Below are positions 216 to 5,571 of a stretch of 5,571 nucleotides of DNA, piece after piece (the first letter of the stretch is position 1; every line of letters starts with the position of its first letter). The notes beneath the pieces were generated by a model that searched no databases, was not told the DNA's origin, and saw nothing but the letters and a program-made list of their open reading frames with translations. Position numbers and translations under genes: made by a program. The stretch comes from an archaeon (lineage in GTDB: Archaea; Iainarchaeota; Iainarchaeia; Iainarchaeales; CSSED10-239), in NCBI GenBank assembly GCA_041677685.1, contig JBAYPN010000037.1, forward strand, positions 1-5,571, read 5' to 3'.

Positions 216-2651
216 TTAAAATAATTGTTTCTTTTTTAGGGTTTGCTTTTTTAAAAATATTTCTTCTTCTAATTCTCTTTGAATCAATAAGGCTCTTTCA
301 ATTATTTGTTTATTAATTCCTGAAAGCTTTGCTACTTGGATACCATAACTCTTATCAATTCCACCTTCCCTTAATTTATGGTAGAAAAATAAATTATTAT
401 TTTCTTCTTTTGCAGTCACATGATAATTTTTTATACCAACATAATTTTCTTCAAGCTTATTTAATTGATGATAGTGAGTAGCAACTAAAGTCTTTGCCAA
501 AATATTATTATTCAAATATTCAATTATTGACCATGCCAAACTTAAACCATCATAAGTACTTGTCCCCCTACCAATCTCATCTAAAATTATAAAACTATTT
601 TTTGTACAATTATTTAAAATATAAGCAACTTCTGACATCTCCACTAAAAAAGTACTTTGCCCATGTATGATATCATCAGATGCACCAACCCTTGTAAAAA
701 CACCATCCACACACCCTATTTCAGAACTCTTGCAAGGTAAAAAGCAACCTATGTGTGCTAAAATAAGACCTAAACACACACTCCTCATATAAGAACTCTT
801 GCCAGACATGTTTGGTCCAGTAATAATCATTGTTCTATTATTTTCATCCAAAAAGCAATCATTTGGTATAAAGTCAACTAACTTTTCTATAATTGGGTGT
901 CTTAGTTCTTTAAAATCAATTTTAGAGGTGTTTGTATGATTTGGTTTAGAGTAACTATTGTTTAAACTAACAATTGAGTGACTTAAGATCACATCTAAGT
1001 TTCCAATAACTTTTGAAAGAGCATTTATTTCTTTTTGATATTTTAAAACTTCTTTACAAACATCTAAAAAAATATTATACTCTAATTCATATCTTTTGTC
1101 TTTAGCATTTAAAACTAAATTTTCTTTTTCAAAAAGTTTAGGTGTAGTAAACCTCTCAGCATTAACCAAAGTCTGTTTTCTTTCAAAATCAGATGGTATA
1201 TTTTTTACAGAGAATTTTGGAATTTCAATATAGTATCCAAAAATTTTATTAAATTTTACTTTTAATGATTTAATGTCTGTTTCATTTTTTAGTTTTGCTT
1301 CATACTCAATTAACCAAGAATCTACACTCTTATGTATGTTAACAAGATCAAAAAGTTCTTTTGAGTAATTAGGGTTAATAAAATTACCTTCTCTTACACT
1401 AAATGGTGGTTGAGAAACAATAGATGCTTCTAATAATTTAACTAACTCATTTATTTCTTGCAAACTAGAATTTATTAAATTTAATTTATTTGTTTTACAA
1501 TCTTTTAAACATTCTTTAAGTTTAGGGATGACCTCTAGGCTCTGTTTTAAAGAAATTAAGTCTCTTGGGCTTGCATTTCCAAAACCAACCTTACTAATTA
1601 TTCTTTCAATATCTCCAACAAAGGAAAGTTGTTGTGTTAATTCTTGTTGTAAAAAGATGTTGTTGATTAGTTCTTCAACAGAATTGTTTATTAAAATTAA
1701 TTCTTTTTTATTAAGAATTGGATGTAATATATCAAAATATAATTTTCTATATCCCATTGGAGTTTTTGTAAAGTTAATTAAACTAAATAAACTATTATTT
1801 GTGGAACTATCATTTAAATTAGACACAAGTTCTAAATTTCTAATTGTTTTTCTATCTAATTTTAAATATTTTGTTTGTGTGTAGTCTTTTATGTTGTTTA
1901 TATAAGTAAGTTCACTAAATTGAGTGTCTTTTAAATATTTTAATGCATTATATGCAGAAACTAAACACTCAGGTTTATTGTTTAGACCAAAAACTTCTAA
2001 TGAATTTAATTTAAAATGTTTTTTTAATTGTTCAGAAGATAAACTAGAGTCTAGATTTTCAGAATAATTGATGATTGTGTTTGTTGTACTCTTTTTAATT
2101 AAGTTTATTAATTCAAGATTATTTAATATATTTTTTGTAATTATTAGTTCTTTTGGTTTAATAGAACTAAGTTCATTTAGCAGTTCATTAAAATTATAAA
2201 AGATAGTTGTTTTAAATTCTCCAGTGGTGATGTCTATAAATGAGAAACCAAAAATTTCTTTTAATTTTGAAATTGAACACAAAAAGTTATTTTCATAATT
2301 ATCATCAAATAAAGTACTTGGAGTTATTATTCTTGTAACTGCTCTTTTAACTAAACCTTTTGCTTTTTTTGGATCTTCAATTTGTTCACAGATTACAACT
2401 TTTTTCCCTGCTTTTATTAATTTTGAAATGTATGGATCAATTGAATGGTAAGGTATTCCTGCTAATGGTGCTTCTGTTAAGCCTTTTCCTCTTTTTGTTA
2501 AAGTTATGTTTAATATGGTTGAAGCTTGTTTTGCATCATCAAAAAACATTTCATAAAAGTCTCCAGCTCTAAATAGAAGTATACCTTCAGGATGTTTTTT
2601 TTTAGTTTCAATGTATTGTTTCATCATTGGAGTTAATAACTTTGGATCCAT
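216..2651 (-). CDS. mutS: DNA mismatch repair protein MutS (bacterial-type MutS1), 811 aa, apparently full length
   Basis: The N-terminus TPMMKQY...LLFRAGDFYEMFFDDA matches the MutS mismatch-binding domain, including the Phe-X-Glu motif. Also present are Walker A GPNMSGKS, STFLVEM, Walker B ILDEIGRGTSTYDG, ATHYHQL and the C-terminal HTH-like SYGIQVAKLSGI. The start ATG is at 2649-2651 (reverse complement) and the stop TAA at 216-218 (reverse complement). A T6 run plus TTTAAAC on the minus strand (plus-strand A-run 2678-2683) lies about 27 nt upstream of the ATG. It could be a TATA-like element, the terminator of the tRNA operon, or both. Confidence 0.95.
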   Translation of the reverse strand: MDPKLLTPMMKQYIETKKKHPEGILLFRAGDFYEMFFDDAKQASTILNITLTKRGKGLTEAPLAGIPYHSIDPYISKLIKAGKKVVICEQIEDPKKAKGLVKRAVTRIITPSTLFDDNYENNFLCSISKLKEIFGFSFIDITTGEFKTTIFYNFNELLNELSSIKPKELIITKNILNNLELINLIKKSTTNTIINYSENLDSSLSSEQLKKHFKLNSLEVFGLNNKPECLVSAYNALKYLKDTQFSELTYINNIKDYTQTKYLKLDRKTIRNLELVSNLNDSSTNNSLFSLINFTKTPMGYRKLYFDILHPILNKKELILINNSVEELINNIFLQQELTQQLSFVGDIERIISKVGFGNASPRDLISLKQSLEVIPKLKECLKDCKTNKLNLINSSLQEINELVKLLEASIVSQPPFSVREGNFINPNYSKELFDLVNIHKSVDSWLIEYEAKLKNETDIKSLKVKFNKIFGYYIEIPKFSVKNIPSDFERKQTLVNAERFTTPKLFEKENLVLNAKDKRYELEYNIFLDVCKEVLKYQKEINALSKVIGNLDVILSHSIVSLNNSYSKPNHTNTSKIDFKELRHPIIEKLVDFIPNDCFLDENNRTMIITGPNMSGKSSYMRSVCLGLILAHIGCFLPCKSSEIGCVDGVFTRVGASDDIIHGQSTFLVEMSEVAYILNNCTKNSFIILDEIGRGTSTYDGLSLAWSIIEYLNNNILAKTLVATHYHQLNKLEENYVGIKNYHVTAKEENNNLFFYHKLREGGIDKSYGIQVAKLSGINKQIIERALLIQRELEEEIFLKKQTLKKKQLF

Positions 2652-2970: not shown

Positions 2971-3031
2971 TTTTTATAGATTATTTAAAAAAACAACAAA
3001 TAAAAAATGTTACAATAGTATATATTATATT

Positions 3032-3049
3032 AGAGAAAAGATTTATAAA
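3032..3049 (+). promoter_or_regulatory. Candidate archaeal BRE/TATA promoter for trm56-tfe
   Basis: A purine-rich AGAGAAAAGA (3032-3041) sits immediately 5' of TTTATAAA (3042-3049). The box centre is about 48 nt upstream of the ATG at 3094. That predicts a transcription start near 3072 and a short leader containing the SD-like GATGAT (3085-3090). This is position and consensus reasoning only. The same 123-bp divergent intergenic region (2971-3093) must also hold the tRNA-operon promoter; a weak candidate is TTTTTATTT on the minus strand at 2998-3006. Confidence 0.35.
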
Positions 3050-3093
3050 CTAATATCTTGATTGCTTCATAAAAAAATATAAAAGATGATAAT

Positions 3094-3636
3094 ATGATAA
3101 AAATATTAAAATTAGATCACAGACCTGAAAGAGATAAAAGGATTACAACTCATTGTGCATTAGTTGCAAGAGCATTTTGTGCAGAAGAATTTTATTATTC
3201 TGGGATAGAAGATTATAGAATTGAAGAAAATATAAAAAATATTAAGGAGAAATGGGGTGGAGATTTTAAAATTGAGTATGTAGAAAAACCTAGTGCCTTT
3301 ATTAAAAAAGTAAAAGAAGAAAAAAAAACAATAATTATTCATTTGACTATGTATGGAGAACAGATTATTAAAATAATTAATAATGTAAGCTCTAAAATCA
3401 ATATAGAAAAATTAGATTTACTTATTGTTGTTGGGGGACCTAAAGTCCCTAAACTATATTATGAATTAGCAGATTATAATGTGTCAGTTACAAATCAACC
3501 ACAAAGTGAAGTTGGGGCTTTAGCAGTCATTTTATATTTACTTAATCCTGATGCTTTAAATGAAAAAGATTTTAAAAATAATAAAATTAAATTAATACCA
3601 AATAACACTTACAAAGATGTTATCAACTTAAAATAG
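3094..3636 (+). CDS. trm56: tRNA (cytidine56-2'-O)-methyltransferase aTrm56 (SPOUT family), 180 aa
   Basis: The N-terminus MIKILKLDHRPERDKRITTHCALVARAF matches the conserved aTrm56 signature (L-[RK]-L-x-HRPERDKR-[IV]-[TS]-TH-V-[AG]-L-[TV]-AR-A-F-G-A). The C-terminal VVGGPKVP...NQPQSEVGALAVILY fits the SPOUT knot region. The size is typical of the family. Confidence 0.88.
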   Translation: MIKILKLDHRPERDKRITTHCALVARAFCAEEFYYSGIEDYRIEENIKNIKEKWGGDFKIEYVEKPSAFIKKVKEEKKTIIIHLTMYGEQIIKIINNVSSKINIEKLDLLIVVGGPKVPKLYYELADYNVSVTNQPQSEVGALAVILYLLNPDALNEKDFKNNKIKLIPNNTYKDVINLK

Positions 3637-3676: not shown

Positions 3677-4249
3677 ATGAATAAATTAAAAAAAGAATTA
3701 TTGTTTGATCAAAATGCAATTACTTTTTTAGAACAAATTGCAGGACCAATTGCTACAGATGTTGTTAAATTGTTTAAGAATGGCTCTGAACTCTCTCCTG
3801 AAATAATATCTTCTAAACTTAATGAAAAAATAACAACAGTTAGATCTACATTAAATAGTTTACATTATAGAGGGATTGCTTGTTATAAGAAAAAAAGAAA
3901 TGAAAAAAATATGTATGTGTTTTTGTGGGAAATTAAACATAAAAAAATTGTTGAGATATTAATGATTCAAGAAATTAAAAAATATAAAAAAATTGAAATG
4001 GAAATTAGTGATAAAAAAATACATGATTTTTTTGTTTGTCCAAAAAACTGTATAGAGGTTCCATTTGAAGTTGCTGCAGCATATGATTTTAAATGCACAA
4101 ATTGTAACTCTAATTTGAAAATTGTAAATTCTACAGCAAAAATTACTAAACTAAATAAAGATCTTAAAAAAATAGAACTAAACATTAAAAAATTAGAAAA
4201 TTTATTAGAAAAAATTAAAGATAATACTAAAGGTTACATTTGTGAATGA
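3677..4249 (+). CDS. tfe: Transcription factor E, alpha subunit (TFE/TFIIE-alpha homologue), 190 aa
   Basis: The N-terminal region looks like a winged helix (PEIISSKLNEKITTVRSTLNSLHYRGIACYKKKRNEKNMYVFLWEI). It is followed by a zinc-ribbon pattern, FVCPKNC-x-VPFEVAAAYDFKCTNCNSNL, which has four Cys and the F-x-EA motif between the Cys pairs. The tail is coiled-coil-like. It starts 40 nt after trm56 and has an AAGGGA SD-like element upstream, so it is probably co-transcribed. Confidence 0.85.
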   Translation: MNKLKKELLFDQNAITFLEQIAGPIATDVVKLFKNGSELSPEIISSKLNEKITTVRSTLNSLHYRGIACYKKKRNEKNMYVFLWEIKHKKIVEILMIQEIKKYKKIEMEISDKKIHDFFVCPKNCIEVPFEVAAAYDFKCTNCNSNLKIVNSTAKITKLNKDLKKIELNIKKLENLLEKIKDNTKGYICE

Positions 4250-4309: not shown

Positions 4310-4384
<75 letters not shown>

Positions 4385-4388
4385 CTTA

Positions 4389-4393
4389 TTTTT
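4389..4393 (+). terminator. Oligo-T tract, likely archaeal terminator of tRNA-iMet
   Basis: A T5 run begins 5 nt after the tRNA 3' end (CTTATTTTTA). Archaeal RNA polymerase terminates at oligo-T tracts. Further T5 runs follow at about 4414-4418 and 4436-4440. Confidence 0.4.
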
Positions 4394-4548
4394 AAATTAA
4401 GATTCAATTGCTATTTTTGTTATTTTAATAAATCCTTTTTGTCTAATTATATGTTTTTTAGAGTGGTAATTACTAGAATTAGTTTTCAATTTTCAGTATA
4501 TGTAGGACATATTTGTTAAATTAAAAATGATTGCTTAAAAAGATAAAC

Positions 4549-4575
4549 TAACCTTTAAAAACAAAATAAAGGTTA
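4549..4575. other. Perfect inverted repeat (hairpin): 9-bp stem, 9-nt loop
   Basis: TAACCTTTA (4549-4557), loop AAAACAAAA, then TAAAGGTTA (4567-4575). On the minus strand it is followed by a T-rich tract (GTTTATCTTTTT). Function unknown. Confidence 0.5.
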
Positions 4576-4595
4576 AAATTTGTATTATTTAACAT

Positions 4596-4621
4596 AATAT
4601 AGTTTATTTAACTATATTTTT
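4596..4621 (+). terminator. Hairpin plus T-run, terminator-like element
   Basis: AATATAGTT (4596-4604), loop TATTT, then AACTATATT (4610-4618), running into a T5 tract (4617-4621). The stem is AT-rich and therefore weak. Whether any transcript ends here is not known. Confidence 0.3.
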
Positions 4622-4790
4622 GAAAAATGAACTTAATTTATTCAAATAAGTTGATAATTACTATATTTTTTATTGGGTAATTACCTAAACTTTAGTAAAA
4701 TCTGATGTAAATTTGTTTTAAAATACAAATTATATACATAATATTTATAGTTAATTTTTACTTTTTTGGTAATTACTTATAAATAGCATA

Positions 4791-4869
4791 ATAATTACTG
4801 TAATTACTATTATCACGAAATATAATTACAGTCATTACCGAAAGCTTTAAAATAATTACGGTAATTACT
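4791..4869. promoter_or_regulatory. Three phased 18-bp double sites (ATAATTAC-N-GTAATTAC) forming a candidate operator/iteron array that abuts the promoter of the ORF at 4902
   Basis: Unit A is ATAATTACTGTAATTACT (4791-4808). Unit B is ATAATTACAGTCATTACC (4822-4839). Unit C is ATAATTACGGTAATTACT (4852-4869). Unit starts are 31 and 30 bp apart, roughly three helical turns. Each unit contains the 15-bp palindrome TAATTAC-N-GTAATTA. Unit C ends on the first base of the TATA-like TATATAAT. Confidence 0.6.
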
Positions 4870-4876
4870 ATATAAT
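4869..4876 (+). promoter_or_regulatory. Candidate TATA box for the ORF at 4902
   Basis: TATATAAT at 4869-4876 is centred about 29 nt upstream of the ATG, implying a leaderless or near-leaderless mRNA. An alternative box is TTTAAAATAA (4846-4855), which would give a leader of about 25 nt containing AAGGA (4891-4895). Both candidates overlap the palindromic array. Confidence 0.3.
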
Positions 4877-4901
4877 AGATGTAATAATAAAAGGATAACT
4901 T

Positions 4902-5447
4902 ATGAACTTATTTAAAATTATAAAAAATATATTTTCTAAAAAAGATATAAATAAAGAAAATATAGAGACTGAAAATATAAATAAAAAAGAAGATCAAATT
5001 CATAATTTAGAAACAAATACAAAAATAGAAACTATAGATAACTTCAAAAATACAAACATTTTAGAAAACAATAATTATTCAAAATCAAATATTTCAGAAA
5101 CTAAAATAAAAACTCTACAACCTCAATTAAATTATGAAAATACAAAAATAAAAGAAGTTACTGTTCAAGAATTAACAAACGAACTAAACACTATTTGGGA
5201 TCTGATAAAAATAAAAGAAAACACACAAGCAGAACATATAATAAAATCTCTACCTTCTGATAAATGGACTACTATGGATGAGTTAAGACAAAATATAAAA
5301 TTAGAATTTAATATAGAATATAAAAACGAAAAAAGTCTTTATCCATATTTAAAAACATTAACTGACATACATTTAATAAAAATAAATAATACAGGAAAAA
5401 AAAGAACTTGGAAAAAAAATATAATAATTATTAAAGATAAAAATTAA
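4902..5447 (+). CDS. Hypothetical protein, 181 aa, with an N/K/E/T-rich low-complexity N-terminal half and a more ordered basic C-terminal half (possible winged-helix DNA-binding fold)
   Basis: A 546-nt open frame is unlikely by chance in DNA this AT-rich, where stop codons are frequent. There is a TATA-like box and a possible SD upstream. I recognise no family. The C-terminal part (WTTMDELRQNIKLEF...SLYPYLKTLTDIHLIKINNTGKKRTWKK) has a helix-helix-hairpin-like pattern. Confidence 0.65.
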   Translation: MNLFKIIKNIFSKKDINKENIETENINKKEDQIHNLETNTKIETIDNFKNTNILENNNYSKSNISETKIKTLQPQLNYENTKIKEVTVQELTNELNTIWDLIKIKENTQAEHIIKSLPSDKWTTMDELRQNIKLEFNIEYKNEKSLYPYLKTLTDIHLIKINNTGKKRTWKKNIIIIKDKN

Positions 5448-5475: not shown

Positions 5476-5511
5476 AATATTAACAAATTCATTTAATATT
5501 AACAACTTCAT
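5476..5511. repeat. 17-bp direct repeat x2, AATATTAACAA(A/C)TTCAT
   Basis: Copies at 5476-5492 and 5495-5511 have one mismatch and a 19-bp period. They lie 3' of the ORF stop. Confidence 0.8.
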
Positions 5512-5516
5512 CTAAT

Positions 5517-5556
5517 TTTAAAAAATCAGAATGAAATTTATTTAAAAAATCAGAAT
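5517..5556. repeat. 16-bp exact direct repeat x2, TTTAAAAAATCAGAAT
   Basis: Copies at 5517-5532 and 5541-5556 have a 24-bp period. They lie at the window edge, so context is missing. Confidence 0.8.
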
Positions 5557-5571
5557 AAATATATGTATCTT

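Follow-up and report, generated by a model that had tools for sequence, protein, structure and literature searches.

A helically phased array of palindromic sites precedes an undescribed winged-helix gene of Iainarchaeota and is probably its autoregulatory operator set

The first 5,571 nt of contig JBAYPN010000037.1 (assembly GCA_041677685.1, Iainarchaeota; hereafter the window, meaning this whole stretch) include a long gap between an initiator tRNA-Met gene and a gene encoding a winged-helix protein of 181 residues. This gap carries an array of cis-elements built from a palindrome of 8 bp, GTAATTAC. The array is real, strongly non-random, and deeply conserved: its sites keep a common helical phase, they accompany the winged-helix gene across the phylum, and they recur at a characteristic position relative to a TATA-like box and the start codon. 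It is nearly certain that this is a protein-binding array of some kind. We regard it as probable that the sites are the operators of the downstream protein, which belongs to an undescribed family specific to Iainarchaeota and would use them to repress its own promoter. We infer that this protein is the binder, that it binds cooperatively, and that the effect is repressive. It would most probably be an undescribed regulator within a known kind of system, that of autoregulated repressors with operators at their own promoters.

The gap contains ten sites altogether: five exact copies of GTAATTAC (starting at 4466, 4677, 4769, 4800, and 4861), four copies of ATAATTAC (4654, 4791, 4822, and 4852), and one GTCATTAC variant (4831-4838). 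An earlier interpretation made from the DNA letters alone (hereafter, the sequence-only reading) had counted nine copies of the core TAATTAC within about 400 bp. This count holds for the + strand of the whole window, where all copies lie in 4467-4868 (starts 4467, 4655, 4678, 4770, 4792, 4801, 4823, 4853, and 4862), and two more are found on the - strand only, within MutS (1365 and 2137). Counting both strands of the window gives 16 copies against 2.75 expected (maximum of 8 in 200 shuffles). We also shuffled the gap alone, which has a G+C content (GC) of 17%. The nine TAATTAC compare with a mean of 0.30 (maximum of 4 in 5,000 shuffles), the five exact GTAATTAC with 0.03 (maximum of 2 in 5,000), and the nine RTAATTAC with 0.13 (maximum of 2 in 5,000). 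The enrichment first guessed from base composition is thus borne out, and chance is disfavoured as an explanation of the array. The gap is also about four times longer than the next longest spacer of the window (123 bp, at 2971-3093), in line with the initial impression of its unusual length.

The sites are arranged in a regular manner. Three double sites, named O3, O2, and O1 in the order in which they approach the gene, start at 4791, 4822, and 4852. Their spacing (31 and 30 bp) and the 9-bp offset between their halves had been described correctly, and so had the single sites and the pair at 4654 and 4677. Two details had to be revised: the double sites span 17 bp (8+1+8) and not 18, and their halves are not all identical, since the second half of the middle one is GTCATTAC instead of GTAATTAC. 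The GTCATTA variant seen in this half recurs among relatives. A palindrome of 15 bp, TAATTAC-N-GTAATTA, can also be read in each double site. The sites at 4769, 4800, 4831, and 4861 make up one in-phase series (31, 31, and 30 bp), and seven sites, from 4769 to 4868, are in helical phase. Tandem Repeats Finder called nothing at 4440-4900, where the spacers between sites differ from each other. Because the spacers are unrelated and the sites are conserved, we interpret the latter as protein-binding sites and not as repeats produced by slippage. A stretch of 21.8 kb of this genome contains a single other exact GTAATTAC, and none within coding sequence. This other copy (L001 13553-13560; L numbers designate loci and contigs) lies around 3.5 kb past the end of the window and around 70 bp upstream of a CobA/CobO-like adenosyltransferase gene, in a divergent spacer shared with a Xer-like recombinase gene.

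The sequence-only reading had taken the downstream gene for an orphan. This was mistaken: we identified 122 homologues of its product at E ≤ 0.01 and at least 148 species-level loci. We scanned one genome per species, kept 80 of these loci, and examined 10 kb on either side in each genome. Nearly all of the kept loci carry the label Iainarchaeum, Diapherotrites, or "archaeon"; one of them comes from the complete genome of Ca. Forterrea multitransposorum. The gene always belongs to a block in which Trm56, TFE, tRNA-iMet, and the gap come before it. The order tRNA-iMet, gap, winged-helix gene, convergent open reading frame (ORF) encoding 197 residues (ORF197), and PRC-barrel gene is kept in around 78 species whose genomes range from 20% to 49% GC. 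The gap is preceded by the same tRNA in every relative checked, and its length is conserved (median of around 430 bp in 68 species). An exact GTAATTAC is present at most 800 bp 5' of the conserved domain in 77 of the 80 species, among them genomes with a GC of 44-49%. The three exceptions are two loci truncated at the gene and one, L067, with six GTAATGA(C/G) variants. Altogether, the 61 kb of upstream sequence contains 235 sites, against 2.1 expected from composition, which is 42 times the density of the 1.14 Mb of flanks. The 18 genomes with GC of at least 0.40 (40-49%) have 30 upstream sites versus 2 in 220 kb of flank. All clusters of at least two sites fall within the interval from -3 to +1.5 kb relative to the gene; the 876 kb of farther flank contains no such cluster.

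The spacing of the sites is conserved as well. The distances separating pairs of sites show peaks at 9-10, 19-23, 30-32, 39-41, 51-53, 62, 71, 82, and 92 bp. This periodicity has a strength of 0.62-0.63 at 10.3-10.5 bp, whereas it is 0.05 at 9 bp and only 0.22 at 12 bp. Close relatives do not count as independent in these statistics, but distant clades give the same spacing. This agrees with the earlier proposal of an ordered arrangement along a single helical face, best explained by the cooperative binding of a sequence-specific protein of the helix-turn-helix type. The distal single site of the window has counterparts in relatives, 200-450 bp upstream of the ATG, the upstream pair corresponds to pairs spaced 20-23 bp at -185 to -250 in close relatives, and the site at 4769 has its counterpart at -108 to -131. 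The offset between adjacent sites is 9, 10, or 12 bp depending on the lineage. What is conserved is therefore the palindrome of 8 bp, with YRGTAATTACYR as its extended consensus, whereas the composite of 17 bp is specific to a clade.

The position of the sites relative to the core promoter is informative on their function. The sequence-only reading placed a TATA-like box at 4869-4876, after the last double site. This is probably wrong. In 18 of the 20 closest relatives, a TTTAAA or TTTATA immediately precedes the last double site, and the ATG comes 7-12 nt after that site, which places this double site downstream of the TATA box. The layout in these 18 is TTTAWA, ATAATTAC-N-GTAATTAC, 7-12 nt, ATG, with composites at -86/-77, -54/-45, and -24/-15 from the ATG. 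It fits a leaderless archaeal promoter with the TATA box centred around 27 nt before the ATG and the proximal composite filling the interval from TATA to start. In distant, GC-richer relatives, a TTTAA/ATTATTTAAA box is flanked by fewer sites, and a site lies 4-26 nt before the ATG, with the last one given as ending 4-20 nt ahead of it, e.g., GTAATTAT-TTTAA-GTAATTAC followed by ATG, or ATTATTTAAAC-N9-GTAATTAC-tatc-ATG. A few start-codon calls (L028 and L031) may be off. By comparison with these layouts, O1 is predicted to lie between the TATA-like box and the transcription start in the window, and TATATAAT (4869-4876) would correspond to the start region of the relatives (Table 1).

Table 1. 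Positions of the array, its promoter elements, and the surrounding genes in the window
Feature	Position	Strand	Remarks
MutL and MutS	216-2651	-	
tRNA-Phe, tRNA-Lys, tRNA-Lys		-	in the window
aTrm56	3094-3636	+	
TFE-alpha	3677-4249	+	
tRNA-Met(CAT), initiator type	4310-4385	+	ARAGORN, Rfam; forms the 5' boundary of the gap
Gap from tRNA-iMet to ORF	4386-4901		516 bp, 16-17% GC
Distal single site GTAATTAC	4466-4473		context tgGTAATTACta
Upstream pair, ATAATTAC (4654-4661) and GTAATTAC (4677-4684)	4654-4684		23 bp from start to start
Second conserved element, TATACATAA	4733-4741	+	(G)CTACATAA in relatives of the AT-rich clade, in single copy and at comparable distance
Single site GTAATTAC	4769-4776		shares its phase (31 bp) with the 3' half of each double site
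Double site O3, ATAATTAC-t-GTAATTAC	4791-4807		
Double site O2, ATAATTAC-a-GTCATTAC	4822-4838		one mismatch
Conserved TATA-like box, TTTAAA	4846-4851	+	abuts the 5' side of O1
Proximal double site O1, ATAATTAC-g-GTAATTAC	4852-4868		
Predicted start region and short leader	4869-4901	+	TATATAAT (4869-4876), Shine-Dalgarno-like GGA at 4893-4895
Winged-helix gene, 181 aa	4902-5447	+	
Convergent 197-aa ORF, PRC-barrel gene, Xer-like recombinase, CobA, RNR, dUTPase, CDC48, topoisomerase I	past the window end		

A second type of repeat is found in the gaps of relatives with intermediate or high GC (L039-L098). It consists of two to four copies of (A)CTCAC that follow A-tracts and are spaced by 62-83 bp (e.g., at -346/-263/-201/-118 from the ATG in L061, -281/-198/-116 in L081, and -310/-237/-165 in L062). 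These repeats are strand-specific: there are 94 CTCAC on the strand of the gene and 7 on the other, and 17 ACTCAC versus 0.4 expected. The TATACATAA element of the window may correspond to them.

Known archaeal repressors suggest how such an array could work. MDR1 of Archaeoglobus, and LrpA and Phr of Pyrococcus, are autorepressors with operators between the TATA box and the transcription start (MDR1 has three, bound cooperatively), and a protein in this position blocks the recruitment of the RNA polymerase. This is why we read the array as a set of negative autoregulatory operators. The recognition unit would be the 8-bp palindrome GTAATTAC, in its extended form YRGTAATTACYR, repeated every 9-12 bp within composites and otherwise at multiples of around 10.4 bp. 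Since this spacing would put bound proteins on one face of the helix, they could bind cooperatively. Occupancy of O1 would allow the binding of TBP and TFB and block either the recruitment of the RNA polymerase or the opening of the promoter. The upstream sites (4791-4838, 4769, 4654-4684, and 4466) would favour cooperative loading and sharpen the response, possibly by forming a loop or a wrapped complex. Sites are densest and best conserved at the promoter of the winged-helix gene itself, which is the usual signature of autoregulation. The likeness to MDR1, LrpA, and Phr thus covers a small HTH (helix-turn-helix) or winged-helix protein encoded directly downstream of its operators, an operator downstream of or overlapping the TATA box (here predicted), and several adjacent operators that would be bound cooperatively. 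The Iainarchaeota system differs from them in having ten sites over 400 bp, an 8-bp palindromic unit, and, in some lineages, further sites at tRNA promoters and past the 3' end of the gene. Its protein also differs: it has no sequence relationship to these repressors and no ligand- or metal-binding domain.

The protein family was delimited with an exhaustive hidden Markov model (HMM) search of 1.84 billion proteins, in which it amounts to 39 clusters at 50% identity. On the basis of these searches, it is a narrow, undescribed family encoded by a core gene of the phylum. Its members have an N-terminal motif (M..L..IKNIF.KK), a variable, disordered linker of low complexity rich in Asn and Lys, and a near-invariant C-terminal domain of around 85 residues. 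AlphaFold2 models residues 95-178 (nt 5184-5435) as a winged helix, with a pLDDT (predicted local distance difference test) above 90 for residues 100-170. The invariant residues are W99, D100, E106-A110, H112, W122, Y140, N142, S145-Y149, K151, T152, D155, W170, and K172. The putative recognition helix, SLYPY(L/I)KT, is near-invariant, like the DNA motif. Foldseek matched this domain with probability 1.0 to the DNA-binding domains of Fur, CzrA/SmtB (ArsR), PadR, BlaI/MecI, and STIV F93. The protein of the window has no sequence match in Pfam (E ≤ 1), NCBIfam, or the Protein Data Bank (PDB).

One of the closest described families is PadR (PF03551, which includes AspA of archaeal plasmids), whose members are typically autoregulated dimers that bind palindromes. 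The resemblance concerns the winged helix with a recognition-helix motif of the type S-L-Y-P-x-L-K-x-L, the PadR structure 8ioi_A among the Foldseek matches, and HMM matches in 12 of 26 members (best E of 0.0011). These matches are all below the Pfam gathering score, and the protein of the window has none. It also departs from PadR in the C-terminal location of the domain after a disordered linker, in the sequence and geometry of the operators, and in the lack of a C-terminal dimerisation helix in the AT-rich clade, the protein of the window ending three residues after the last strand. We therefore do not assign the family to PadR.

Several observations weigh against the operator reading. With synteny this rigid, co-occurrence does not tell whether the binder is the winged-helix protein or a conserved neighbour such as TFE-alpha, ORF197, or the PRC-barrel protein. 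A palindrome of 8 bp is also a short target for a classical winged-helix dimer. In two related species (L046 and L067), the 60 nt upstream of the gene have GTAATTAC replaced by five or six GTAATGA(C/G) with 10-bp offsets, and this change of the motif has no obvious counterpart in the putative recognition helix. After O1 and ahead of the ATG, the window contains around 26 nt that its closest relatives do not have, which makes the position of its transcription start uncertain. Finally, some site clusters, such as those of three sites in L023 and L025, lie where no promoter is expected, and simple autorepression is insufficient to explain them.

The first of these points opens the possibility that a different conserved factor, e.g., the ORF197-family protein or an unlinked regulator, binds the sites and that the winged-helix gene is merely its best-conserved target. 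The synteny of the winged-helix gene, ORF197, and the PRC-barrel gene is as conserved as the sites themselves; ORF197 lacks a recognisable fold or family, and sites are also found at the promoters of tRNA-Lys(CTT), ORF197, and Dus. However, the winged-helix protein is the only neighbour with a confident fold for sequence-specific DNA binding, its own promoter has the densest and best-conserved sites, and the motif and its recognition helix are equally invariant. We consider binding by another factor unlikely. As a separate observation, the ORF197 family (L001 10588-11711 and homologous positions in around 78 loci) has many invariant residues and no Pfam or PDB match, and it is always encoded, with the PRC-barrel protein, convergently just downstream of the winged-helix gene.

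Sites beyond the gene's own promoter bear on the extent of the system. In one clade, two or three sites directly abut the 5' end of the tRNA-Lys(CTT) gene (L054 7797-7822, L056 7769-7794, L062 7765-7791, and L079 7880-7908), where they include a pair of GTAATTAC whose proximal member is part of a composite. Their placement suggests that the same factor may control the tRNA-Lys(CTT) gene in these lineages; the tRNA-Lys genes of the window lack such sites. There are also five sites between MutS and tRNA-Phe in L020, sites upstream of Dus in L068 and L069, where Dus precedes the winged-helix gene, and sites upstream of the convergent ORF197 homologue in L051, L053, and L062. A further group lies in the 3' convergent spacer (L023 10418-10466, L025 10265-10313, L022 10550-10620, L028 10284-10312, and L079 10470-10562), with two or three GTAATTAC around 20 bp or around 42 bp apart and no promoter expected. 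All these extra clusters fall within the same syntenic block. They fit a small local regulon, in which neighbouring promoters of some lineages would respond through the same sites, and they also fit an architectural or centromere-like role.

The latter role would be that the winged-helix protein coats the phased sites on either side of its gene and forms a higher-order nucleoprotein complex for chromosome organisation, segregation, or membrane tethering, with autoregulation as a by-product. There are precedents for such by-products in ParR/parC, omega, and AspA. ParR/parC and the omega heptad arrays are plasmid centromeres that double as operators, made of direct repeats bound by ribbon-helix-helix proteins next to a partition nucleoside triphosphatase (NTPase). 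They resemble the array in having many short, helically phased sites around the promoter of the binder, which here would also be occupied cooperatively along one DNA face. The array departs from them in its candidate binder, a winged helix, in its palindromic units separated by spacers that vary, and in its setting, a core block of the chromosome where no partition NTPase gene was found within 10 kb. The PadR-like character of the fold (Foldseek and weak HMM matches) is relevant in this respect, since AspA, an archaeal centromere-binding protein, is PadR-like too. The phased sites of the window, up to ten within 400 bp, the clusters between convergent genes, and the confinement of every cluster to one block of around 5 kb conserved across the phylum all speak for such a role. 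So does the conserved, hydrophobic and basic N-terminal motif M..L..IKNIF.KK, which could be an interaction or membrane peptide. The conserved PRC-barrel neighbour points in the same direction, as proteins with this domain are described as functioning in archaeal cell division (10.1101/2023.03.28.534520). On the other hand, there is no ParA, ParM, TubZ, or SegA-type NTPase within 10 kb, many relatives have just one to three sites, all at the core promoter, which suits regulation better, and the most conserved positions overlap the region from TATA to start. We give this explanation a low probability. It is about as doubtful that the complex is a chromosomal landmark, centromere-like or a tether to the membrane or the division site, in which the conserved N-terminal peptide, taken as amphipathic, would tie the coated DNA to a partner. 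Were this true, it would mean that DPANN archaea, for which we know of no recognisable segregation machinery, have a chromosome-organising system not known before.

The operator, iteron, centromere, and origin interpretations were the four options of the sequence-only reading, and comparative evidence favours the first of them. A replication origin or origin-recognition array might be suspected from the length and very high AT content of the gap (16-17% GC), its flanking by repeated sites, and the conservation of its length. Yet no orc1/cdc6 gene is present within 10 kb, the sites overlap the core promoter, and in GC-rich relatives the sites persist although no AT-rich stretch for unwinding is present. 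The GTAATTAC palindrome also has no apparent resemblance to the origin recognition box consensus. A check of GC skew, suggested for this purpose, revealed no persistent switch at the locus, where local skew follows gene orientation only. In the complete Ca. Forterrea genome, the origin defined by skew and Z-curve adjoins cdc6 (PMC5905446), and the locus studied here lies elsewhere, at around 770 kb of the 839.6-kb record. An origin is thus very improbable.

Even less credible is that the sites are iterons, or repeats linked to att sites, of a plasmid or virus integrated at the tRNA-iMet gene. The gap does start where a tRNA gene ends, and a tyrosine recombinase gene is found four genes downstream. 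However, the order of tRNA-iMet, gap, winged-helix gene, ORF197, and PRC-barrel gene is the same in around 78 species, which identifies a vertically inherited core block, and the locus is syntenic and chromosomal in the 80 species. Among 120 viral contigs listed with paired GTAATTAC, none encodes the winged-helix protein, Trm56, or TFE. Strain variants from ten samples are identical save for one single-nucleotide polymorphism, and so are too alike to inform on constraint. No Pfam domain of Rep, ParA, or ParM was found in the neighbourhood (within 10 kb).

We also considered that the gap might encode an RNA or a small protein. Rfam has no RNA family in it, either in a permissive scan of the window or in a scan of seven GC-rich relatives at gathering thresholds. 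The folding z-score of the gap is -3 to -3.8 on both strands in the window, as expected from palindromic repeats, and is weak and inconsistent in relatives (-0.4 to -2.5); the shuffling procedure may under-mix the sequences behind both sets of values. A structured RNA is thus unsupported. A small gene is equally unsupported, as the gap contains just ORFs of 20-30 residues that overlap the sites.

Similar geometries exist outside this family. The met boxes of MetJ are directly adjoining palindromes that recur every 8 bp, and they are bound by a ribbon-helix-helix protein whose adjacent dimers cooperate. The array shares with them a repeated 8-bp palindromic unit, and differs by its offsets of 9-12 bp plus multiples of around 10.4 bp and by its candidate binder, a winged helix. 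A metagenome scan for three phased GTAATTAC returned, among the 120 matches listed, 4 contigs encoding the winged-helix protein and 77 plain tandem repeats. It also uncovered a different array that shares the GTAATTAC core, a 16-bp palindrome near ACGTGTAATTACACGT in three or four copies, with 20-23 bp spacing and unrelated spacers. These arrays are on metagenomic contigs with GC of 0.50-0.56, several of them from seawater (L116, L117, L119, L137, L142, L172, L207, and L214), the flanks of their palindromes vary by a base or two, and these contigs have no winged-helix relative near the array. They apparently represent an unrelated, widespread system. In the literature, the motif string matched primers only, and we found no paper on DPANN regulators with this motif.

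Other features of the locus concern its surroundings. The window DNA matches part of a 38.7-kb chromosomal contig (JAQUEP010000007.1, GCA_028685115.1) from an uncultivated archaeon, and identical DNA is present in more than ten other assemblies. The tRNA-Met gene has the features of an initiator that can be read from its sequence, namely an A1:U72 pair and an anticodon stem with GGG:CCC. A tandem repeat of 24 bp, CTACTCTTCTAATATTCAAATAAA (3.6 copies, 95% match), occupies 49-134 of the window, in the MutL/MutS spacer just 3' of MutS. The convergent spacer at 5476-5564 has two short tandem repeats, AATATTAACAAATTCATCT (2.7 copies) and TTTAAAAAATCAGAATGAAATATA (2 copies), and no GTAATTAC. The block with the winged-helix gene and ORF197 is also found on contigs filed as bacterial, namely L020, L027 (Bacilli bin), L044 (Falkowbacteria bin), and L093 (Gammaproteobacteria bin). 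The first of these is NZ_JAEDAM010000051.1, attributed to Ca. Vampirococcus lugosii, and it encodes aTrm56 too. These contigs are probably mis-binned Iainarchaeota DNA.

Almost nothing is known on gene regulation in DPANN archaea, because no Iainarchaeota have been cultivated. The locus provides a concrete and testable putative pair of regulator and operator, with a winged-helix family restricted to the phylum, an 8-bp palindrome, and a clear promoter geometry. This palindrome has been retained invariant in genomes ranging from 20% to 49% GC. The link to tRNA-Lys(CTT), Dus, and Trm56-TFE hints at a control of genes related to translation, and the confinement of the site clusters to a single conserved block would be compatible with an architectural role. 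Promoter annotation and the recognition of mis-binned contigs of Iainarchaeota could also make use of the motif.

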